NCBI RefSeq assembly: GCF_022701215.1
Contig: NZ_CP089976.1
Coordinates: forward strand, 1,050,001 to 1,082,000
DNA from: Moraxella nasovis
Lineage (GTDB): Bacteria > Pseudomonadota > Gammaproteobacteria > Pseudomonadales > Moraxellaceae
DNA length: 32,000 nt
Direction of reading: 5' to 3'
Shown here: one piece after another, positions 7,709 to 26,833 of the stretch
Position numbering within the stretch: the stretch's first letter is position 1
How the letters are laid out: every line of letters starts with the position of its first letter
Position numbers and translations under genes: made by a program
Notes under the pieces: model-generated
The model's input: only the letters and a program-made list of their open reading frames with translations
What the model was told of the DNA's origin: nothing
The model's database searches: none

Positions 7709-9028
7709 GTGGACTTATTTTTTAACCTTGCTATGATCGCTCTGCTGATTTTGGTATCAAGTTTTTTCTCTATTTCTGAGATTGCCTTGGCAGGGGCTCG
7801 CAAAATTAAGCTAAAACTCATCTTGGAAGGTGGCGACAAGCGTGCCGAGAAAATCATGCGTCTGCAGGAGCATTCTGCTGACTTTTTCGCCACTTCGCAA
7901 ATTGGATTAAATGCAGTCGCCATCTTGGGCGGTTCGGTGGGTGAAGGGGCTTTGCGTCCTTATTTTGCCGATTTTATTGGGCATTTTTATCAAGGCGTGT
8001 GGCTAGATAACATCGCATTTTTTACGTCTTTTGTGGTGGTTACATTGCTGTTTATCTTGTATGCCGACCTTATCCCCAAACGCATTGCGATGATTAACCC
8101 TGAAAAAATCGCTTTGATGGTCATTGAGCCTGTGCTGATGGTCATCAAAATCATCAAGCCTTTGGTGTGGGTGATTAACGGTCTTGCCAATCTGACCTTT
8201 CGTCTTTTTAAAATCAATACCACCAGAGAAGATAACATCACCTTTGATGATGTGTCTGCCATCGTGGACGCAGGGGCAGAGGCAGGCGTGGTCTTGCAAC
8301 AAGAACAGCATTTTATTGAGAATGTCTTTGAATTAGAAGAGCGTACCGTGCCATCATCAATGACAGTGCGTGAAGATGTGGTATTTTTTACCTTAGATGA
8401 GAGCGAAGAGAATATCCGCCAAAAGATTGCTGATTATCCGTATTCCAAATTCTTGGTGTGTAATACCAATGTTGATCAGGTCATCGGTTATGTGGATACG
8501 AAGGACATTTTGGTCAGATTGCTCAATAACCAATCATTCGTTCAGCTCAACGAAAGCGTTATCCGCAATGTGCTGATTATTCCTGATACGCTGACACTCT
8601 CAGAGCTATTGGATAAATTTCGTGCCAGCAAAGAAAAGTTCGCCGTGGTCATCAACGAATACGCTTGGGTGGTCGGCATCATCACGCTATCAGACATCAT
8701 GATGACGGTGATGGGCGATTGGGTTGCCCCTACTGATGAAGACCAACAGATTATCCGCCGTGATGAAAGCTCGTGGCTCATTGATGGTAGCACGCCCATT
8801 GATGATGTCAAGCACGCTTTGGACGTGGCTGATTTTGCCGATTGGGATCATTATGAGACCTTGGCAGGCTTTATCATGTACCGCTTACGCAAAATCCCAA
8901 GACCTGCTGATTTTGTCATGCACGAAAATTTTAAATTTGAAGTGGTGGACATTGACCATTTTAAAATTGACCAAGTGCTCGTAACTCGTCTATCTGGCGG
9001 TGATGAAGTAGATAGAGATTGGGTGTGA
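7709..9028 (+). CDS. CNNM/TlyC-family membrane protein (DUF21 - CBS pair - CorC_HlyC), putative divalent-cation efflux
   Basis: 439 aa with four N-terminal TM helices, a central CBS-like region (VRED..., IITLSDIM) and a C-terminal transporter-associated domain. It has a GTG start. Confidence 0.8.
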   Translation: MDLFFNLAMIALLILVSSFFSISEIALAGARKIKLKLILEGGDKRAEKIMRLQEHSADFFATSQIGLNAVAILGGSVGEGALRPYFADFIGHFYQGVWLDNIAFFTSFVVVTLLFILYADLIPKRIAMINPEKIALMVIEPVLMVIKIIKPLVWVINGLANLTFRLFKINTTREDNITFDDVSAIVDAGAEAGVVLQQEQHFIENVFELEERTVPSSMTVREDVVFFTLDESEENIRQKIADYPYSKFLVCNTNVDQVIGYVDTKDILVRLLNNQSFVQLNESVIRNVLIIPDTLTLSELLDKFRASKEKFAVVINEYAWVVGIITLSDIMMTVMGDWVAPTDEDQQIIRRDESSWLIDGSTPIDDVKHALDVADFADWDHYETLAGFIMYRLRKIPRPADFVMHENFKFEVVDIDHFKIDQVLVTRLSGGDEVDRDWV

Positions 9029-9046
9029 GCGACTAGGCGTGATTTG

Positions 9047-9078
9047 AAAATGCAAGTTTGAGCTTGCATTTTTTATTT
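9047..9078 (+). terminator. Rho-independent terminator after the CNNM gene
   Basis: AAAATGCAAG-TTTGAG-CTTGCATTTT followed by TTATTT. Confidence 0.7.
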
Positions 9079-9135
9079 GAAAAAAAGGTTGATTGTGTTT
9101 GAAATATTTTGTTACATTTATATTTAAAAAATATA

Positions 9136-9165
9136 TTGACAAAATTTTGAAAAATAACATATTTA
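9136..9165 (+). promoter_or_regulatory. Sigma70-like promoter for the AT-rich cassette
   Basis: Perfect -35 TTGACA at 9136-9141. A -10-like element (CATATT/TATTTA) lies at 16-18-nt spacing around 9158-9165. The background is very AT-rich, so this is tentative. Confidence 0.4.
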
Positions 9166-9183
9166 AACCGTACCGAAATAATA

Positions 9184-9203
9184 TTACATAATATATTATG
9201 TAA
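9184..9203. promoter_or_regulatory. Perfect 20-bp palindrome (operator-like) in the leader of the small ORF
   Basis: TTACATAATATATTATGTAA is its own reverse complement. It lies about 20 nt downstream of the putative -10 and 52 nt upstream of the ATG at 9256. Confidence 0.5.
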
Positions 9204-9255
9204 ATAAATCATTTGGGTACATTTAACATTAACTTTTAGTAATAAGGATTTTATC

Positions 9256-9366
9256 ATGAAAAGTCAAGTTAAATTAATTGCCAAACAACTACCTGTTGCT
9301 CAAAAAGCAAATGCTGGTAAAATGGAGAGAAAAAAAGCTAAGGCTGCTGCGTGTATGTTTGAGTGA
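9256..9366 (+). CDS. 36-aa Lys/Ala-rich peptide MKSQVKLIAKQLPVAQKANAGKMERKKAKAAACMFE (candidate precursor peptide; not in the ORF track)
   Basis: I translated this by hand. ATG at 9256 is preceded by ATAAGGATTTT (AAGGA 7 nt upstream), and almost the same ATAAGGATTTT string precedes the next gene. It stops at TGA 9364-9366 and a terminator hairpin follows 28 nt later. Confidence 0.5.
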   Translation: MKSQVKLIAKQLPVAQKANAGKMERKKAKAAACMFE

Positions 9367-9394
9367 TTTTTCTCAATAAGTAGTTTAGTGTAAG

Positions 9395-9427
9395 GCAATA
9401 AGAATTTTAATGTTCTTATTGCTTTTT
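9395..9427 (+). terminator. Intrinsic terminator/attenuator between the small ORF and the downstream genes
   Basis: GCAATAAGAA (9395-9404), an 8-nt loop, then TTCTTATTGC (9413-9422) and TTTTT (9423-9427). The stem is a perfect 10 bp. Confidence 0.65.
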
Positions 9428-9452
9428 GGATTTAACACATAAGGATTTTCAT

Positions 9453-9866
9453 ATGGTTATTGATGCATCAATTCAGGATTATATAGAATGTTTGGATTTT
9501 TATTGGATTAAGAAAAAACTACTGTCTTTAAGTGCTGATGGAGATTCCAAAAATTGGACTTTGGAGGGCGTGGAAGATGCAATACGCCAATATAAAAATT
9601 TTATGATATTAATGAAAATTTATGATGGAACAAGTGAAAAAATAGTGCCTTCTGTTGAAGTTGATGTTATTTGGCATAATCATATTTTAGATACCAAAGC
9701 CTATTTTAAAGATTGTGAAGTGATATATGGTAGATATATGCACCATTTTCCTTATTTTGGAATAAGAAGCAAGGAAGATTATCAAGATTTAAATCAGTCT
9801 TTTGATAGAACTCAGGAGTTATATTTCCAGCATTTTGGTGAATATATGTATGAAATTGATTTCTGA
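9453..9866 (+). CDS. Stand-alone GRDP-like (DUF1399) domain protein, about 137 aa
   Basis: AIRQYKNFMILMK...VPSVEVDVIWHNHILDTKAYFKDCEVIYGRYMHHFPYFG follows my recollection of the plant GRDP N-terminal domain pattern (AI.RYK...VP.D.EWIWHCHRLNP.RY..DCE..YGR). ATG at 9453 follows AAGGATTTTCAT; the track start at 9426 is a TTG inside the terminator T-tract. Confidence 0.7.
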   Translation: MVIDASIQDYIECLDFYWIKKKLLSLSADGDSKNWTLEGVEDAIRQYKNFMILMKIYDGTSEKIVPSVEVDVIWHNHILDTKAYFKDCEVIYGRYMHHFPYFGIRSKEDYQDLNQSFDRTQELYFQHFGEYMYEIDF

Positions 9867-11202
9867 TTTTTCTTTTTCTTGGAAAGATGAATTAAAACTC
9901 ACATCGGCATTTATCATTAATCGCTTGATGCCGATACTTGTTTTTTTTACTGCTTTTATTTTGGTATTAAATAAAGCTGAACCAAATCAGATTGATGAGT
10001 ATTCCATATATTCGTCCGTTTATAATAGTGCATTAGCTTTTGGTTTGGGTATGACATCTGGAATTCGTTTTTATAGCACTTATTATGCTTATCAGCGATT
10101 GTCTTTACTTCTTGTTAGTTTTGCTTTGTTTTTGGGTATTTTGATTTTTGGTGGATTTTTGATTTATACCAATAATTTTTTGCCAAGTAGTTTGCAAAAT
10201 AATACAGTTGCTTTGATGTTTGCATTGTTATTTCCTGTTGTATTCTGTTATGAATTTTTGGTTATTTTGGGTGAAAGTAAAAAAGCGGTCAAGGCAAGCA
10301 GTATTTCTAATTTAATTGCACTACCTATCTTTTTGATGGTGTTTTTTGTGATATTATGGGTGCTGCCCAATCAGCTGACTACTGTTGAGTTGGTTAGTAT
10401 GTCGCAACTTATCACAGAATGCCTACTTTTAACTGTGCTAATGGTTTATATACGAAAATTTGCTATAATTGATGATTGTCAGAATAATGGTAAGGGTGGT
10501 ATTGTCAATCAAGTGCCTATGCAAGCAGGTAATTTTTATATTATCAAAAGTATAGTTGTTTTTAGTTTTCCCATTATTGTTTTGCAGTTTTTAAAAAGAG
10601 TGGCTCAGAGTCAGTCATTGCTTTTTGTGAGCGATGTTACAAATTCGGTTGGTATTCTACAAACGTTATTTATGCTTGCTGTTTTATTCTCTGTTTTTGC
10701 AGCCGCATTTGCTAATAATGGTTTTGTGGTTTTAGCAAAAGAGTACCAGTCATGGAAAATTTCATCTTGGTGTTTAGTAAGGTCTTATTTTTTATATAAT
10801 GCTATTTTATTGGTTTTTACCTCTTTGTTATTGTTGTTTTTTATATTCTTATTAAACGTCTGCGATATTTACGATATTAAAAATCAGCCTTTTGTTAATT
10901 TTTTAAGGCATAATAATGCTTTAATATTTATTTTCTTATTGTCTGACATGGTATTTTGGTCTTTGCTTATGTATGTGCGTGCATTAGGCGATAGTTGGCG
11001 TATGCAGACGGTTTGGATTGTGGTGTTGGGCGTATTATTAGGTGTGGGGTTATTTTTATTTGATGTTAATTTGCCTTTAATCATCACGATATTTTTATTG
11101 GCAAATGTGATTAGTAGTTTGTTTTCTCTTTATTGGATTTATCGGCATATTGATTTAAAAATAAAAGCAATGTCTTTTAAACCTAAATTTAATTCTCCCT
11201 AA
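9850..11202 (+). CDS. Polytopic (about 12-14 TM) membrane protein, MOP/MATE/Wzx-like exporter topology
   Basis: 450 aa, almost entirely hydrophobic helices separated by short loops. ATG at 9850 overlaps the end of the DUF1399 gene by 17 nt, suggesting translational coupling. The gene is very AT-rich. Family assignment rests on topology only. Confidence 0.7.
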   Translation: MKLISDFSFSWKDELKLTSAFIINRLMPILVFFTAFILVLNKAEPNQIDEYSIYSSVYNSALAFGLGMTSGIRFYSTYYAYQRLSLLLVSFALFLGILIFGGFLIYTNNFLPSSLQNNTVALMFALLFPVVFCYEFLVILGESKKAVKASSISNLIALPIFLMVFFVILWVLPNQLTTVELVSMSQLITECLLLTVLMVYIRKFAIIDDCQNNGKGGIVNQVPMQAGNFYIIKSIVVFSFPIIVLQFLKRVAQSQSLLFVSDVTNSVGILQTLFMLAVLFSVFAAAFANNGFVVLAKEYQSWKISSWCLVRSYFLYNAILLVFTSLLLLFFIFLLNVCDIYDIKNQPFVNFLRHNNALIFIFLLSDMVFWSLLMYVRALGDSWRMQTVWIVVLGVLLGVGLFLFDVNLPLIITIFLLANVISSLFSLYWIYRHIDLKIKAMSFKPKFNSP

Positions 11203-11939
11203 ATCTCCACCGCCACCACCGAGCAGTCATCACGTCCACGCCGTTTTTTCAGATTATGAAGCATGATGGCAAGGCGGTCGGTCAGCGTGGACTGGCTGTG
11301 CCACATGAGCGTCAGCTCGTCCATGCTAAATTCATCCGTCAAGCCGTCTGTACAGATGAGTAAAGTTTGCCCTTGTGTGAGCGTGTGCGTGGCGTGGTGG
11401 ATTTTAAAGTCGTACTCATTAGGGTCAGCGATGAGACACTCCGCCAAACCGCCATACATCTTAGCATATTCCACACCGTCTTTGATGTCATCATGGAGTA
11501 GCTCGTTTAGTATCGTGTGGTCGTGGCTTAATTTGTGCCACACGCCATCATCAATCACAAACACCGAGCTGTCCCCCACATTAAAAATTAGGCACGCTCC
11601 TGTTTCATCAATCACCGCTCCTGCGATGGTCGTTGCCGACCCCAAAGCGGTGGGGGCGATGTGATTGCAAAATTTATCAAAATACTCATCAAAAAACGCC
11701 CGAGTTCCCACCGCTACCGCAGGCGTGCTTGCAATGGCATTTAACCAAAAACGGCTTGCCAAATGGCTTTTTGGGCTAGATGACACACCGTCCGCCACCG
11801 CCACACAAAAGGGCATAGCAGGTGTGGGAACGGTTTTGGTGTGGTGCAAGGCGACATGGCGAACACTTGTACCGTCAAATAGTGCATCTTGATTGACCGC
11901 TTTGCCGTCTGCTTTGATTTGAAAATAGGCGATGAGCAT
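11199..11939 (-). CDS. PP2C-family Ser/Thr protein phosphatase (246 aa)
   Basis: PP2C motifs appear in order: AVADGVSSS, NVGDSSVFV, ICTDGLTDE, and RDDCSVVAVEI at the C-terminus. ATG at 11939 is preceded by ACAGGAAAAGCC. The track start at 12008 is a TTG upstream of a hairpin. Confidence 0.8.
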   Translation of the reverse strand: MLIAYFQIKADGKAVNQDALFDGTSVRHVALHHTKTVPTPAMPFCVAVADGVSSSPKSHLASRFWLNAIASTPAVAVGTRAFFDEYFDKFCNHIAPTALGSATTIAGAVIDETGACLIFNVGDSSVFVIDDGVWHKLSHDHTILNELLHDDIKDGVEYAKMYGGLAECLIADPNEYDFKIHHATHTLTQGQTLLICTDGLTDEFSMDELTLMWHSQSTLTDRLAIMLHNLKKRRGRDDCSVVAVEI

Positions 11940-11970
11940 GGCTTTTCCTGTTAAATTACCGAAAATCAAA

Positions 11971-11997
11971 ATGGGGCAATATCGCCCCATTTTTTTT
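11971..11997. terminator. Hairpin with flanking A/T runs between the middle gene and the PP2C gene (bidirectional terminator/attenuator-like)
   Basis: ATGGGGC-AATATC-GCCCCAT followed by TTTTTTT on the plus strand. On the minus strand the same stem is followed by TTTGATTTT. Confidence 0.5.
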
Positions 11998-12010
11998 AAA
12001 TCACACAAAT

Positions 12011-12484
12011 TTAAACACTTAAAGGCAATCCACGAGCCTTGCGGTTTTCAGCAACTTTGGCGTACCAATCTTTGATGACTTTGGTGGTTTCGGCATCATC
12101 GCTGGCACAGCGGTTTAATGTCCCTGGGCGCTGTGGACATTCACGCACGTCTGTACCGTCAATTTCCCAATCCAGCACACGCACAGGACGGCGATTTTTT
12201 ATCCATTCGGTGCGTTCGTCGTTATCGTCGTTGATAAAGTACGCACCGCCAATAACTTGCACAAGGGCGACAAAGGTTGCACCTTGGCGAATGGCGATGA
12301 TATCATTGACTTTGATGTCGTTTTTAAACATGTCAATTTGCTCTGCTCCGCCATCCCATTCGCCCAAGCCAATAAAACCGTGATGTTCTAGGATATAGGG
12401 AATGTGCTTGGCAAAATCGTACATTTCACCGGTGGGGTGCATTTGCATATGCCAAAAGTTGTTGGGGGTAAAGGTGTTGTTCAT
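12011..12484 (-). CDS. Hypothetical 157-aa protein, family not recognised (possibly a PUA/EVE-like small beta-barrel)
   Basis: ATG at 12484 is preceded by AAGGAG with a 6-nt spacer. It begins MNNTFTPNNFWHMQMHP...GFIGLGEW...VNDIIAIRQGATFVALVQVIG. The fold suggestion is only a pattern impression. Confidence 0.65.
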   Translation of the reverse strand: MNNTFTPNNFWHMQMHPTGEMYDFAKHIPYILEHHGFIGLGEWDGGAEQIDMFKNDIKVNDIIAIRQGATFVALVQVIGGAYFINDDNDERTEWIKNRRPVRVLDWEIDGTDVRECPQRPGTLNRCASDDAETTKVIKDWYAKVAENRKARGLPLSV

Positions 12485-12509
12485 GATAAACTCCTTAGGT
12501 ATCAATGAG

Positions 12510-13034
12510 TTAGGTGTTAATGGTAATGCTGATTTGACTTTCATCTATGCCAAGTGTCAAAGCAAGTCTGCGTTTGGCTTCGGGAATGGTTAAAGGTTCA
12601 TTAGAAACTGATGTGATTTCGGTTGGCGTTTGGGATAGCATGGTTGGCACAACTTGATGAAACTCTAACGTATTCACATCAATGCCAAAATCTTGCAAGG
12701 TGTAATACGCCACAGGATTGGCATTACCCTTGATTTTTTCTCCATTAACTGTTGATATACTAATCTCTGCATATTCGCTGATGTGGACTTCATTGCGTTC
12801 ACCATAGGTATGGTTGGGTTTGATGTCGCTGATTTTACCAATTAAAAAAGCGGTATGAGATGGTGCTTCGGGCTTCCCCCATTCGCCGATTAACTGTACA
12901 CAAATCAAGTATTGACAGCGTTTGGCACGATTTTTATTAAACCGCCAGTTGCCACTATACCCTTTTGCTAAAATTTCGCCTTTACCTTGATAAGTAAAAA
13001 CCACCAAACATTCTTGATTAACAGTATTCACCAT
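12510..13034 (-). CDS. Hypothetical about 174-aa protein, family not recognised
   Basis: First gene of the minus-strand operon. GGAG lies just upstream of ATG 13034 (GTG 13031 is an alternative start). The N-terminal about 125 aa look beta-rich, followed by a Thr/Ser/Pro linker and the C-terminal tail PLTIPEAKRRLALTLGIDESQISITINT. Confidence 0.65.
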   Translation of the reverse strand: MVNTVNQECLVVFTYQGKGEILAKGYSGNWRFNKNRAKRCQYLICVQLIGEWGKPEAPSHTAFLIGKISDIKPNHTYGERNEVHISEYAEISISTVNGEKIKGNANPVAYYTLQDFGIDVNTLEFHQVVPTMLSQTPTEITSVSNEPLTIPEAKRRLALTLGIDESQISITINT

Positions 13035-13057
13035 ATACTCCAATTAACTGTTAATAT

Positions 13058-13086
13058 ATGATAATGTATGGCATGATATTTTGCAA
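13058..13086 (-). promoter_or_regulatory. Sigma70-like promoter for the three-gene operon
   Basis: Minus strand reads TTGCAA (13086-13081), a 17-nt spacer, then TATCAT (13063-13058), about 25 nt upstream of the start codon. Confidence 0.45.
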
Positions 13087-13097
13087 GCATATATGAG

Positions 13098-13715
13098 TTA
13101 AAATTTTAAGAGTTTTTTTTTAAAATTTTTGATTTTTATATCAATTTTAATCCCCCCCCTATCCCCCCAACCTGCCCACCAGCCAAACACAACATTAACG
13201 CACATTAGAGCGAACAGCACTTGCAAGGACAGCTCCCAAGTCCCTGTTTTTTCAAATAATTTCCCCAAAGTCAGCGGACCAAAAAACGCCACGCCATAGC
13301 CCACCGCCTGCACCATGCCCGACAAATCCCAAGCGGTCTCTGTGCTTGTTGTGCGGATAGAAAATAGCATGAGCGACAGCGTAAAAATCCCCGTCGCCCC
13401 AAAGCCCAAAAGTGCCGACCACACCACAAGATGATTAGGTAGCCATAGCACACCGCCCACGCCCACAGCATTGGCGATACTGCACGCCAAGGCGATGAGC
13501 CGAATGGGGAAATTTCGTTTAATAAAAAAGGTCAGCAAAAATATTGCCACAGGGGCAGTCAGCTGAAACACGAGTGCCAAAAGTCCATCTTGATACTCAC
13601 TTAGCCCATAGCCCATGCCGATGGACGGCAAAAAACTGGCAACAGTATAAAACAATAACGACTGTATACCCATATATACGCCCATGTACCACGCATTTGG
13701 GTTTTGCCAAGGGTT
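13098..13715 (-). pseudogene. Remnant: C-terminal six-TM half of a CynX/YeaN-like MFS transporter
   Basis: From NPWQNPNAWYMGVYMGIQSLLFYTVASFLPSI onward it resembles the second half of CynX-type MFS proteins. No N-terminal half is present. The upstream part of the ORF is Pro/Ser-rich read-through overlapping the cobW remnant, and the 3' tail runs through a G8 tract. Confidence 0.5.
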
Positions 13716-23187: not shown

Positions 23188-24627
23188 ATGAAAAAATTTG
23201 TTCACGCCAGTATCAAAGTACTGCTTTTTATCATCGCCATCACACTCATCATTATCGCACTTGGCTATGGTCGTATGTTATTAAGCGAGACCACCCAAGG
23301 CGATGTTGCATGGCGTTCTTGTTATCGTCCGACTTATTGGTCGTGGTTTAGCATACCGCCATCACCACAGTTACAATGTGCTAATATTGACGTACCGCTC
23401 AATGATACGTCCAATCAGACCATCACCCTTGCCTTAACACGCCTGCCATCAACGCATGAACACGCCAAAGAGCTACTGCTCATCAATGGCGGACCGGGTG
23501 GGCATAGTCTAGACATGGCAGACTGGCTGTCTGATGATGAATACACACAAGCCCTAAAAGACAATTTTCATATACTAGGCATCGCCCAACGTGGGGTCAG
23601 ACCATCAACCGCCATGAACTGTGGCAACCTTACAGAAGAAGAGGGTGCCAAAGCCTATGTAGATGCGTGCATTAAGCATTCAGGGCTTGATTTTATCAAA
23701 TCCATAGATACCCTAAGTGCTGTCAAAGACCTTGATTTTATCCGCCACAAGCTTAATATTGACACTTGGTCCATGCTTGGCTACTCCTACGGCACTAAGG
23801 TGGTGGCGTTGTATGCACAGGCTTATCCCAAAAGACTAAGAGCAGGCGTATTAGATGCGGTGGTTGATACCAAAGAAGACCTATTTACGATGTGGGCAAA
23901 TCAGCAATCACAAGCACAGTTTGCTTTTGACCGATTTATCGTCCATTGTCAGCAAGATGAACGTTGTATTTTTGCCAAATCCGATGACCAAAATCGCAAG
24001 TTTTTGACGACACTTCATGAATTATCCGCCCAAAAGTTCACCGACAAAAATAATGACGCCATCAATGAGCGTACGCTACTTGCATTGTTTGAAGATAACT
24101 TGGGCGAACCTATGATGTGGCGTGAGCTTAATGAGATGTTTGATGAGCTCAAACAAGGCAAAACCGACAAATACAACGAATTATTATTCATCAAAGAATT
24201 TGGCGAAAAAGATTTCACCCAAGACGCTTTTATCGCCATCAACTGTGCCGATTCTGCCCCAAAAGTGCGTCAAGATTATCTGGATAAATCACGCCACGTG
24301 GATAAAATCGCCACCTATAATGACATCAAACAAACGACAGATGAACTGCTTGACGCTTGTTATTATTGGCCCTTTGATGGTACGGACGATTTGACGATGC
24401 AGGCGGTGGCAGATGTACCGACCTTGCTATTTGTCGCCCAAAAGCACGATTTGGCCACGCCCTTTCATAACGCCAAAAACATGGCGGCTCGTTTTCGTGG
24501 ACATCTCATCTACACCCCAAACTTCGGACATACCATAAGCTTGTCCGCCATGAATGCGTGTATTGACCAAGCGGTGGTGGATTATTTGGTGGCATTAAAA
24601 AAGCCTGACAGGATGATGTGTGAGTAA
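23188..24627 (+). CDS. Membrane-anchored/secreted alpha/beta hydrolase (S33 aminopeptidase-like)
   Basis: Has an N-terminal TM/signal segment, INGGPGGHS, the nucleophile elbow GYSYGT, and a C-terminal FGH. Confidence 0.7.
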   Translation: MKKFVHASIKVLLFIIAITLIIIALGYGRMLLSETTQGDVAWRSCYRPTYWSWFSIPPSPQLQCANIDVPLNDTSNQTITLALTRLPSTHEHAKELLLINGGPGGHSLDMADWLSDDEYTQALKDNFHILGIAQRGVRPSTAMNCGNLTEEEGAKAYVDACIKHSGLDFIKSIDTLSAVKDLDFIRHKLNIDTWSMLGYSYGTKVVALYAQAYPKRLRAGVLDAVVDTKEDLFTMWANQQSQAQFAFDRFIVHCQQDERCIFAKSDDQNRKFLTTLHELSAQKFTDKNNDAINERTLLALFEDNLGEPMMWRELNEMFDELKQGKTDKYNELLFIKEFGEKDFTQDAFIAINCADSAPKVRQDYLDKSRHVDKIATYNDIKQTTDELLDACYYWPFDGTDDLTMQAVADVPTLLFVAQKHDLATPFHNAKNMAARFRGHLIYTPNFGHTISLSAMNACIDQAVVDYLVALKKPDRMMCE

Positions 24628-24785
24628 CCGCCTTTTTATTTGGTTTTATTATGCCATTTTACTCATATATCATAAAAACACGCCATAAGCCAAGCCAGCA
24701 GACCGGCATACATGATTATCTTTGAATGAATTGTAGCAACTGATGGATTAAAGTTAAATCCTATACCAGTTTTTAATATTTTAAG

Positions 24786-24808
24786 TTAATTAAGCTTAGC
24801 TTAATTAA
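24786..24808. repeat. Inverted repeat TTAATTAAGC-TTA-GCTTAATTAA
   Basis: 10-bp perfect arms read directly. It lies just 5' of the strong terminator hairpin. Confidence 0.6.
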
Positions 24809-24811
24809 AAC

Positions 24812-24848
24812 AAAACTTTCATCTTTAATAAAAAGATGAAAGTTTTTT
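24812..24848. terminator. Strong bidirectional rho-independent terminator in the hydrolase/glmS convergent spacer
   Basis: AAAACTTTCATCTTT-AATAA-AAAGATGAAAGTTTT forms a 15-bp perfect stem. A further TT follows on the plus strand, and the A-run on the other side gives a T-tail on the minus strand. Confidence 0.75.
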
Positions 24849-24994
24849 ATCGGTGTTATTATATTTTTAAGGATACGCTTGACTTAAAAGACTAAATATA
24901 GCCATTTATCACCTGTGCTGCATCCACGTTTATCTTTTGACGTTGTCAAAATAACGCTCGTTAAGCTCTATCTTGCCGATTTAATAAAAGGCGA

Positions 24995-26833
24995 TTACTC
25001 AACCGTAACCGACTTTGCCAAATTGCGTGGTTTATCCACGTCAGTGCCACGCACCAAGGCGACATGATAGGATAATAGCTGTACAGCAATGGTATGCACA
25101 ATCGGTGATAGCACGCCAATGTGGCGTGGCGTGCGAATGATATGCACACCGTCTGTTTCGGTAAAATCGCTGTCTAAGTCGGTTAAGACGAACAGCTCAC
25201 CGCCCCTTGCCCCAACTTCTTGCATATTGGCTTTGACTTTATCGAGTAGGTTGTCGTTAGGTGCGATGACGACCACAGGCATATTCTCATCAACTAAAGC
25301 CAGCGGACCATGTTTAAGCTCACCTGCTGGATAGGCTTCAGCGTGGATGTAGGTTAGCTCTTTAAGCTTTAACGCCCCTTCTAAGGCAATGGGATAATGA
25401 ATACCACGCCCTAAGAATAAGGCAGATGGCTTGGTGGCAAAGTCTTTTGCCCAAGCAGATAACTGCGGCTCAAGATTTAAGGCGTGCTGAATGCTACCGG
25501 GTAATAAGCGTAACTCTTCGGCATAGTTTGTTAGTTGTTCATCGCTGACATGACCACGCAGATGACCTAAGGTAACTGCAAGCCCAAATAAAATCACAAG
25601 CTGAGTGGTGAAAGCCTTGGTACTCGCCACGCCAATCTCCGCCCCAGCACGAGTGTAGATGGCAAGCGAGCTACTTCTAGGTAGGGCAGACTCCATGACG
25701 TTACAGATAGATAGGCTGTGCTTATGTCCTTGGGCTTGGGCATATTTTAGGGCTTCCATCGTATCTAGGGTTTCGCCTGACTGGCTAATGGTGATGATCA
25801 GTTCATTTTCATCACTAATGACATCACGATAGCGGTACTCGCTTGCGATTTCTACATCACAGCGGATTTTAGCGATGGATTCTAGCCAATATTTGCCTGT
25901 GAGTGCAGCATAATAAGACGTGCCACAGGCGAGTATCTTAATACTGTTAATTTGACTAAAAATTTGTCTTGCTGTTTCGCCAAAATTCTCTGGAACAAAA
26001 CCGCCATCTAAAAATATTTCGGCAGTGTCAGCGACGGCTTTTGGTTGTTCGTAAATTTCTTTTTGCATAAAGTGGCTATGCCCGCCAAGCTCAAGCGACG
26101 CTAAGGAAAGCTCTGAGATTTTCGTGTTGCGATTGGCAACATTGCCTTGTTTGTCGAGTAAAGTCTCAATGCCGCTTGCACTTAGTAGGGCAATATCGCC
26201 ATCTTCTAGGTAAGCGACTTTACGAGTAAAAGCAATAACAGCAGATACATCAGATGCGATGAATGTCTCATCATCACCAAACGCCACAAGCAGTGGGCAG
26301 CCCATGCGTGCCACGACCATATGGTTAGGGTCGTCTGCACAAATCACCGCAATGGCATAAGCCCCATGAAATCGTAATGACGCTGTCTGTACAGCACGGT
26401 ATAAATCGCCACCATTTTGGCTGTATTCATGGTGAATGCTGTGAGCGATAACCTCGGTATCAGTCTGGGAGTTAAACTCATAGCCTAAGGCTTGTAAGCG
26501 TTCACGCTCTGCCTCAAAATTTTCAATAATGCCGTTATGCACTACCGAAATTAAGCCACCTGAAATGTGCGGGTGGGCGTTCGGCTCAGTAACTCCGCCA
26601 TGCGTCGCCCATCTGGTGTGTCCGATGCCGATATGACCTGTCAGATTTTTAGCATGGGCAGCCTGTGCCATATTCTGGACACGCCCCACACGGCGAACCC
26701 GCTTAATCTCATCGCCGTTATGCACCGCAATCCCTGCTGAGTCATAGCCACGATATTCAAGGCGTGCCAAGCCATCGGTTAAAAAATCCACCACATTGGC
26801 ATTTTTACGAAGTGCTCCAACAATTCCGCACAT
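24995..26833 (-). CDS. glmS: Glutamine--fructose-6-phosphate aminotransferase
   Basis: 612 aa with the N-terminal MCGIVG (Ntn cysteine), two SIS domains and a C-terminal KSVTVE. Confidence 0.95.

Follow-up and report, generated by a model that had tools for sequence, protein, structure and literature searches.

What system is encoded by a short, AT-rich block of Moraxella nasovis DNA that holds an unannotated gene for a 36-residue peptide, a gene for a small protein of the GRDP (DUF1399) family and a gene for a polytopic membrane protein? The block lies at 9099-11202 of the 32,000-nucleotide (nt) stretch analysed here, hereafter the window, and an initial annotation of the letters had proposed it as a candidate system for peptide modification and export. 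All the elements listed in that annotation were located where it had placed them: a TTGACA promoter, a perfect 20-bp palindrome, a 36-codon open reading frame (ORF) with a good ribosome-binding site (RBS), a hairpin with a 10-bp stem followed by five T residues, a 137-residue protein with the DUF1399 signature, and a membrane protein with 12-14 predicted transmembrane segments whose gene overlaps the preceding one by 17 nt. The proposal itself is supported, and the four findings named as contrary to it (a small ORF that is not conserved, random neighbourhoods of GRDP genes, a flippase of glycan loci and universally conserved core sequence) were not obtained. On balance, we consider the cassette to be a mobile operon that would make a ribosomal cysteine peptide, matured by the GRDP-like protein and exported by a pump of the MATE type. 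Judged from its gene content, it is a peptide production and export operon with a putative maturation protein that is absent from the known classes of peptides that are made on ribosomes and modified after translation (RiPPs).

The genes recur together. The order peptide gene, hairpin, GRDP gene and gene for a polytopic protein of ~410-460 residues was found in at least 15 independent loci, on chromosomes as well as plasmids (L-numbers denote the related loci or contigs compared, and P-numbers homologous proteins). The hosts are Moraxella cuniculi (L007), Moraxella-like metagenome contigs (L003-5, L101-106), a plasmid-like metagenome contig with IncFII repA and traI (L001/2), Serratia marcescens (L012/13), Photorhabdus luminescens (L014), Cupriavidus (L016/17), Kiloniella (L008), Halomonas (L011, L100), a Klebsiella plasmid (L015), two plasmids of Pseudomonas savastanoi (L098, L099) and metagenomes (L018, L045); the L001-type cassette was not found in complete Escherichia coli genomes, nor as DNA in PLSDB. 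The GRDP stop codon and the transporter start overlap or abut in every cassette, and the 17-nt overlap YMYE(I/V)DF*/MKLIS is common to the window, L003, L101, L103, L014 and L008. Thus, the neighbourhood analysis suggested by the initial annotation gives a fixed order of peptide gene, hairpin, GRDP gene and overlapping transporter gene for the close GRDP subfamily. The GRDP proteins are 42-81% identical across classes, whereas the pumps are 20-43% identical within a type and give no BLAST match between types; the GRDP clade, the transporter clade and the peptide type change together. A few loci depart from this order. In Xenorhabdus stockiae (L009) the peptide and GRDP genes are kept and the transporter gene is missing, and in a Nonomuraea locus the transporter is an MFS pump. 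Neisseria leonii carries a decayed copy (L006, CP145606; 5700-6250), in which the GRDP gene is split by a frameshift into pieces of 30 and 82 residues and the peptide ORF is broken, with MRKK... and ...KAKPAHCLL* in different frames; its gene for a 412-residue membrane protein looks intact.

The first gene of the cassette (9256-9366, plus strand) starts with ATG, is preceded by AAGGA 8 nt upstream and would encode the precursor-like peptide MKSQVKLIAKQLPVAQKANAGKMERKKAKAAACMFE. This exact peptide is missing from a collection of 15 billion proteins, and the ORF is therefore unannotated. Related loci encode ~18 such peptides with an ATG start, an RBS and an invariant cysteine (Cys33 in the window peptide). 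The conserved C-terminal motif of the window type is ERKKAKAAxCMFx. Between the window and L003, synonymous changes occur inside this motif (Arg AGA to CGT, Lys AAG to AAA, Ala GCT to GCA), and because the motif is kept through them, the peptide is conserved at the protein level. Three types of C-terminus can be distinguished, KKAKAA(A/R/H)C(M/L)(F/P), (I/V)AKPAHC(L/Q)P and HCQG(G/D)G(G/S/H)W, and the L103 peptide, KKAKAAHCLPAEFS, bridges the Moraxella and enterobacterial types.

The individual sequences illustrate this range. Among Moraxella-type loci, the peptides end in ...GDKEMRKKAKAARCMFE (L101), ...GDKEVRKKAKAAHCLPAEFS (L103) and ...(S/L)ERKKAKAARCMF(R/E) (L003 and L007). The complete peptides are MKKNQKTEAGKAVRKPAKPAHCQP in Kiloniella, MKKVRKVAKPAHCLP in L001, MKKARKIAKPAHCQP in Serratia, MKRTRKIAKPSACE in Xenorhabdus and the short, strongly basic MKKVRKIAKPAHCLP in Photorhabdus. 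Further C-termini are ...NALAARCMNPLS in L018, ...AAAKNNGGGGHCQGGGGW in P. savastanoi, ...GGGHCQGGGSW in Halomonas, ...NSNAHCQGGGGW in Klebsiella, ...SSSHCQGDGGW in L045 and ...SSQGHHCQGGGHW in Cupriavidus. Ammonium transporters of 431 residues that fall into the 90% cluster of a 44-residue Pseudomonas peptide were dismissed as a clustering artefact.

A comparison of L101 with L103 shows how these peptides diverge. Their promoters are near-identical and the first 23 codons identical; the two then diverge sharply from the codon before the cysteine through the 3' spacer, and similarity returns at the GRDP gene. At the sequence level this looks like the pattern seen in peptide natural products, a conserved leader joined to a variable core. 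A leader motif, KP(V/T/E)Q(K), is likewise shared by the HCQGGGxW-type peptides. The divergence of the core between near-identical cassettes would also suit an unmodified cationic bacteriocin, in which the Lys-rich peptide is itself active, the GRDP-like protein serves for immunity or as a chaperone and the MATE-like protein secretes the product; the cassettes encode short, strongly basic peptides such as MKKVRKIAKPAHCLP, and a structural gene followed by a small soluble protein and an exporter resembles class II microcin and bacteriocin loci. We nevertheless regard this explanation as distinctly unlikely. GRDP is the most conserved part of the cassette, at the 42-81% identity given above and with invariant polar residues, unlike fast-evolving immunity proteins, and this high conservation weakens an immunity role. 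GRDP domains are moreover fused to Cys-rich tails where no exporter is present, the extra oxygenase genes in the operons imply chemistry, and secretion of peptides as long as 15-46 residues is not known for the MATE fold.

The second gene (9453-9866, plus strand) encodes the 137-residue GRDP-like protein (PF07173, DUF1399; PF27765, UCP032817-like). It is 100% identical to an NCBI protein from M. nasovis. The PF07173 profile matches above its threshold (32.4 bits, cut-off 22.7; E = 1.7e-7) but over no more than model positions 95-143 of 143, and a precomputed PF27765 assignment exists for P0001, whose sequence is identical, as well as for all close homologues. The signature recognized in the initial annotation reads W74-H75-x-H77...Y84..D87-C88-E...Y92-G93-R94 in the window protein, within the conserved core (E/x)xDxxWHxHILDT ... 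HH(F/Y)PYFG. Fifteen residues are invariant in 120 homologues (Y47, P66, D71, W74, H75, H77, I78, L79, D80, T81, Y84, G93, H98, Y101 and G103), and D87, C88 and H97 are conserved in at least 90% of them. The AlphaFold2 (AF2) model has six helices and is of high quality, with a predicted local distance difference test score (pLDDT) of 93.4 and a predicted template modelling score of 0.88. A Foldseek search of this model against the PDB gave no fold match (best E = 1.1), comparison of the GRDP profile with all PDB sequences gave noise only (E >= 0.5), NCBIfam had no match, and PADLOC and PHROGs searches gave no function. Because the fold matches no enzyme of known function, catalysis by GRDP is inferred only from the invariant Asp, His and Tyr residues. 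Foldseek against BFVD returned unannotated giant-virus GRDP-like proteins only. Among giant viruses, the GRDP fold occurs in Harvfovirus, Gaeavirus, Terrestrivirus, Orpheovirus and Fadolivirus, with TM-scores up to 0.71 (A0A3G5A0N6, A0A3G4ZYS9, A0A2I2L3W5 and others), and one BFVD match is described as a ubiquitin-like domain-containing protein.

The wider family, which has 5,702 representatives at E <= 1e-3 (clusters at 50% identity), links the domain to cysteine peptides in another way. The window protein carries no glycine-rich region and ends with the domain (...EYMYEIDF*); Gly- or Cys-rich tails are present in many other bacterial members, and the Gly-rich part appears again in the separate HCQGGGxW peptides. 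Tails of 8 or more residues at the C-terminus were found in 196 of 262 homologues, 121 of these 196 with at least two and 71 with at least four cysteines, and cysteine accounts for 7.6% of the residues in tails and for 1.4% of those in the GRDP domain. Some tails are tandem repeats of a Cys unit, such as PKCGAPxG repeated five times, and some are rich in both Cys and His, such as DCWHDCQGRCWHAC. In Nonomuraea deserti (L010:5325-5484), a perfect repeat of 39 bp x 4.1 encodes SADRCAVAFESEA four times in frame, N-terminally fused to the GRDP domain, and a gene for an MFS exporter comes next (PF07690, E = 1e-27). This locus looks like a multi-core, fused version of the system. GRDP domains are thus both fused to and split from Cys peptides, as tails and repeats on the one hand and separate peptide genes on the other. 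In the homologue P0102, the GRDP domain is followed by a short motif with cysteines, GRCPNCGSGS, and this in turn by a stretch starting CFVADTPI..., which we take to resemble the start of a self-cleaving domain of the Hint/intein type.

The same fused and split forms could be read as a metal-handling module, in which the Cys/His(/Gly) peptide is a metal ligand (a metallophore or a tail resembling a metallochaperone), GRDP its metal-binding partner and the MATE pump the exporter of the complex or ligand, with no covalent modification. The invariant cysteine is usually preceded by histidine (as in AHC and HHCQGGGHW), tails such as DCWHDCQGRCWHAC supply both residues, GRDP itself has an invariant Asp/His cluster, and the sequence H-x-x-GGG-x-W bears a mere resemblance to the Cu-binding HGGGW unit of the prion octarepeat. 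We consider this module unlikely. The peptides of Moraxella, Xenorhabdus and L018 contain one Cys but lack His, none of the cassettes carries a regulator that responds to metals or a gene for metal uptake, and the genes for oxygenases, halogenase and methyltransferases found as neighbours suit covalent tailoring better.

Those neighbours, often found downstream, are of several kinds. One or two PhyH genes are present in several cassettes, a JmjC/cupin_8 gene follows another, and genes for S-adenosylmethionine (SAM) methyltransferases and TauD adjoin tail-bearing GRDPs. In Halomonas salifodinae (L011:9694-12340), a 121-residue N-terminal fragment of a Trp halogenase (PF04820, E = 4.8e-27) directly follows the transporter; the halogenase gene is apparently interrupted by an oppositely oriented transposase-like ORF, presumably IS30-like, and its partner peptide has the C-terminus ...HCQGGGSW. 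Pfam and NCBIfam searches with the cassette proteins gave no family besides the GRDP-like one, and none of the known RiPP enzyme families was found among these proteins, as the initial annotation had held. Some tail-bearing GRDP genes (L054:2216-3118 and L038:893-1774) are followed by genes for a protein of the S9 prolyl-oligopeptidase family (E = 4.9e-21) or a weakly radical-SAM-like protein; the latter has a CNLTCRGC motif and an E-value of 1e-3, below the cut-off. Enzymes of the S9 prolyl-oligopeptidase and radical-SAM types are used in other peptide pathways. On a plasmid of Halomonas sp. I5-271120 (L100:2005-3562), the cassette adjoins a divergent pair of genes for LuxR and an acyl-homoserine-lactone synthase, which hints at control of this cassette by quorum sensing.

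The third gene (9850-11202, plus strand) encodes a membrane protein of 450 residues. Its ATG at 9850 lies upstream of the GRDP stop codon (9864-9866), giving the 17-nt overlap, and the two genes are predicted to be translationally coupled. The AF2 model has ~12 long helices. No Pfam or NCBIfam match was found for this protein or its seven closest relatives, and a search against PDB sequences likewise gave none. Its assignment comes from profile-profile and fold comparison only, because the direct searches with hidden Markov models (HMMs) and PDB sequences were negative. The Cupriavidus counterpart matches MatE (PF01554, E = 5.9e-14) and, below the cut-off, TIGR00797 (E = 2.7e-18). In hhalign, the alignment of the window type (A3) matches the one that holds the PF01554-positive protein (A4) with a probability of 84.8% (E = 6.5e-6, 369 columns), and both share the motif R-x-L-x-D-(T/S)-x-x-x-Q. 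In a Foldseek search of the model, which has a pLDDT of 57, against the PDB, the top 41 matches all belong to the MOP superfamily and the best 18 are MATE exporters, with E-values down to 7.5e-5 and TM-scores of 0.36-0.58. Taken together, the profile and fold matches indicate that the membrane protein is likely to be a divergent MATE/MOP transporter.

Structures of WzxE and MurJ are also among the Foldseek matches, at ranks 19, 30, 32 and below, and a plant GRDP is reported to interact with a UDP-rhamnose synthase (PMC13001069). These two observations could be accommodated by an envelope or glycan function, in which the polytopic protein is a flippase of the Wzx/MurJ type, GRDP an accessory protein and the small ORF incidental. 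Such a function is extremely improbable: MATE exporters take the first 18 places among the fold matches, PF01554 and TIGR00797 are matched by the Cupriavidus protein, genes for glycosyltransferases or sugar-nucleotide synthesis are absent from the ~15 cassettes, and the small ORF is conserved. The flippase of a glycan locus, which the initial annotation had named among the findings contrary to it, is therefore not what the comparison returns.

Between the peptide and GRDP genes lies a stem-loop (9392-9425, plus strand) with a perfect 10-bp core, GCAATAAGAA/TTCTTATTGC, which can extend to 14 pairs and is followed by TTTTT. The spacer of the window folds with z = -3.0 relative to shuffled sequences. 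A stable hairpin is present in all 12 homologous spacers tested, with stems of 9-15 bp that are unrelated in sequence and z-scores from -1.4 to -5.4, 10 of the 12 at or below -3. The initial annotation had called this element a leaky terminator. The hairpin holds throughout; the T-run after the stem is limited to Moraxella-type cassettes, and because of this the stem rather than the T-run is the universal feature. The hairpin may be a partial terminator or an element for RNA 3'-end formation or stability, and may bring about true termination in some lineages.

A small ORF with a terminator-like hairpin behind it, ahead of structural genes, is also the classic layout of an attenuator, and the small ORF might accordingly be a regulatory leader peptide that senses the ribosome and lacks a function of its own, with the hairpin attenuating an inducible two-gene operon for detoxification and efflux that consists of GRDP and the MATE-like pump. 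Several peptides end in Pro followed by a stop codon (AHCLP*, AHCQP*), a context that slows termination, and in enterobacterial loci the stem starts 5-9 nt past the stop codon. However, no competing antiterminator pairing was found in the minimum free energy (MFE) folds predicted for the ORF plus spacer of 10 loci, and every full-length MFE fold retains the hairpin as a local element of its own. Depending on the locus, the stem lies 3 to 30 nt from the stop codon, no Rfam family matches in 8900-11400, and it is the leader that is conserved and the core that varies between L101 and L103. The same Cys-peptide motifs are fused to GRDP elsewhere, four in tandem in Nonomuraea, which an upstream regulatory ORF cannot explain. 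The fusions and the tailoring genes argue most strongly against a regulatory leader, which we judge to be very improbable.

Upstream of the peptide gene, an invariant 21-nt block, TTGAAATATTTTGTTACATTT (9099-9119, plus strand), forms the 5' edge of all Moraxella-type cassettes. It is present once in the window and as an exact, single match on the same strand in 10 related loci (L003-5, L007 and L101-106), where ~0.01 matches are expected by chance, and is probably a promoter-upstream or operator element. A sigma-70-like promoter, TTGACA-16-CATATT (9136-9163, plus strand), follows. Its score of 10/12 is the highest reached, at two sites of which the second is on the minus strand, and the AT-rich DNA here shows no general enrichment of promoter-like sites (14 against 11.6 +/- 3.4 in shuffled sequences). 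The promoter call therefore rests on conservation, as L101 and L103 keep the TTGAC(A/G) box in the corresponding position. The perfect 20-bp palindrome TTACATAATATATTATGTAA (9184-9203), located between promoter and RBS, is not conserved in L003, L007, L101 or L103; it is specific to this genome and may be an operator.

The cassette differs from its surroundings in composition. G+C content is 29.5% in 9040-11202 and 44.4% in the remaining window, and 60-nt lines at 8701, 9121, 9961, 10801 and 11221 have 55.0, 16.7, 31.7, 23.3 and 51.7%, in agreement within rounding with the five hand counts of the initial annotation. The gene upstream (7709-9028) encodes a CNNM/CorC protein (PF01595, PF00571 and PF03471) and ends in a terminator-like hairpin with a T-run (9047-9075, plus strand; AAAATGCAAG-TTTGAG-CTTGCATTTT, then TTATTT). 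This hairpin marks the left edge of the low-G+C block, and G+C falls from there on. In M. cuniculi the cassette occupies another chromosomal site, between ispF and a gene of the isochorismatase family; the cassettes of L101 and L103 have yet other flanks, and copies in other lineages are plasmid-borne. These observations, namely the AT-rich composition here, the different site in M. cuniculi and the plasmid-borne copies elsewhere, indicate that the cassette is mobile, and from composition and context we read 9099-11202 as a horizontally acquired, self-contained operon rather than as the universally conserved core sequence that was the alternative. No direct repeats flanking the block were found, no conserved right end common to the cassettes was found, the window contains no tRNA gene, and no integrase gene was seen adjoining the cassette. 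A 22-nt inverted match (8995-9016 and 11194-11215) is just 73% complementary and was taken as chance.

At its right end, the transporter gene overlaps a convergent gene for a PP2C-family phosphatase (11199-12008, minus strand; PF13672) at the stop codons (11199-11202), with no terminator between the two and the G+C shift exactly at the junction. Beyond the phosphatase gene, the minus strand of 12011-13043 holds two overlapping ORFs of 177 residues. The one at 12510-13043 matches phrog_37247 (function unknown, E = 1.6e-30) and the one at 12011-12544 has no match; with the dip in G+C to 33% at 12901-13200, they may form a second small accessory islet. Another sharp dip, to 29%, lies at 24601-24900, between the ORFs 23188-24627 and 24995-26833.

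How the parts might work together can be outlined as follows. Transcription would start at the TTGACA promoter, and the first gene would yield a Lys-rich peptide of 36 residues with the C-terminal motif ERKKAKAAxCMF and its invariant cysteine. The hairpin would end or stabilize most transcripts, leaving the peptide message in excess while a fraction reads through, for which the mccA-mccB junction of microcin C offers a precedent. From the read-through RNA, the GRDP-like protein would be made and, by translational coupling, the MATE-type transporter. The invariant Asp/His/Tyr cluster of GRDP, probably a metal site, would bind the C-terminal motif of the peptide and modify it at or around the cysteine; GRDP would thus be catalytic or at least peptide-binding, with the cysteine as its target. 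Finally, the pump would export the product, perhaps after trimming by a host peptidase, and protect the producer. A bolder proposal, which we regard as possible rather than probable, is that the maturation enzyme defining a new ribosomal peptide family is GRDP/DUF1399 (PF27765), with an Asp/His metal site that transforms the invariant cysteine; it would act in cis on fused Cys-rich tails and in trans on separate peptides exported by a dedicated MATE pump.

Several observations weigh against the operon being one for peptide maturation and export. The Foldseek comparison of GRDP that the initial annotation had called for returned no enzyme of known function. In 80 metagenome loci of the wider GRDP family, downstream genes are heterogeneous and most members lack a transporter, which restricts the transporter link to the tail-less subfamily. 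The conserved part of the peptide is its C-terminus, whereas the leader is more conserved in most RiPPs; in the deeper lineages the C-terminal motif is what is kept, and peptides of 14-15 residues leave little room for a leader. Histidine precedes the cysteine in most other lineages and not in the Moraxella peptides, no leader peptidase is encoded in the cassette, and the T-run behind the hairpin is missing in many lineages. The transporter model is weak (pLDDT 57, from an alignment of three sequences), and MATE pumps usually carry small cationic molecules, not peptides of 15-46 residues.

Comparison with known systems places the cassette more precisely. By gene content it is not a member of the pantocin A, microcin C, borosin or ClbM/SolL systems, because their defining enzymes are absent. 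By analogy, the functionally closest would be pantocin A paaPABC and microcin C, the architecturally closest the borosins, and the closest pumps ClbM and SolL. The pantocin A cassette of Pantoea comprises 3.5 kb and encodes a precursor of 30 residues, a 2-oxoglutarate (2OG) oxygenase and an exporter of the small-molecule type (PMC12250964). Like the GRDP cassettes, it is compact and horizontally mobile, with a tiny precursor in which a few invariant residues stand among variable flanks; several GRDP cassettes also have a 2OG/Fe(II) oxygenase, the exporter is in both of a small-molecule type giving self-resistance (a proposed role in the GRDP cassettes), and neither has a leader peptidase. They differ in that pantocin A relies on the ThiF-like PaaA, which targets Glu-Glu-Asn, and on an EamA-family exporter, whereas here GRDP, cysteine and a MATE-like protein take these places and no ThiF-like domain is present. 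In microcin C of E. coli (mccABCDE), the terminator that separates mccA from mccB leads to a short transcript that is abundant and stable (PMC4231749). In both systems the operon opens with a gene for a very short peptide; an intergenic hairpin comes next, and then the gene for a modifying enzyme, which is here a proposed one. Microcin C is exported by an efflux pump of a non-ABC family, as is proposed for the product here. However, MccB, an E1-like adenylating enzyme whose target is a C-terminal Asn, has no counterpart here, and the T-run is absent from many GRDP cassettes.

In borosins, the enzyme is either fused to a substrate tail with repeated cores (the OphMA type) or stands alone with a separate precursor (the split bacterial type), and the fused and split forms of GRDP resemble this dichotomy. 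The borosin enzyme is a SAM-dependent alpha-N-methyltransferase, whereas GRDP consists of six helices, lacks a SAM fold and has no match in the PDB. ClbM of the colibactin pathway (4z3n) and SolL of the solanimycin pathway are 12-helix MATE pumps in biosynthetic clusters, as the window transporter would be; ClbM is among its fold matches, and the Cupriavidus counterpart weakly matches NF041801 (MATE_SolL). The window transporter differs in being too divergent for any MatE HMM and in being coupled to the gene for a small soluble protein, a coupling that to our knowledge has not been reported for pumps of the ClbM/SolL type. In the MNIO (DUF692) systems, such as those for methanobactin, TglHI and the bufferins, metal-dependent TIM-barrel proteins act with partner subunits on a conserved cysteine in small ribosomal peptides from Proteobacteria. 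GRDP can be likened to them in concept, and differs in that the cassette encodes neither DUF692 nor another known RiPP family. Finally, plant GRDP1 and GRDP2 share the PF07173 domain with the window protein and carry a Gly-rich segment, which here occurs in the HCQGGGxW peptides. In the plant papers found here, GRDPs are known only through their phenotypes in stress and development and through a reported interaction with a rhamnose synthase (PMC13001069), and no peptide or exporter partner is described. Literature searches on DUF1399/GRDP and the peptide motifs, outside subscription-only papers, returned plant papers only, with no bacterial function of DUF1399/GRDP and no mention of the peptide motifs.

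If the proposal holds, it would provide the first biochemical function for a domain that is conserved in bacteria, plants, fungi and giant viruses, and a testable role for a family of ~5,700 clusters (50% identity) that includes plant GRDP1/2 and the giant-virus homologues. The fused and split architectures would supply natural substrates for in vitro work, and the cassette, small at ~2.1 kb and easily cloned, would give access to a new family of peptide natural products and to a MATE-fold pump dedicated to a ribosomal-peptide product. Should the chemistry be metal binding instead, the module of peptide, GRDP and pump would still be a new metal-handling system. The cassette occurs in animal-associated Moraxella and on plasmids of plant and human pathogens, and the proposal would mean that Serratia, Klebsiella, Photorhabdus and Pseudomonas savastanoi would make plasmid-borne secreted peptides.

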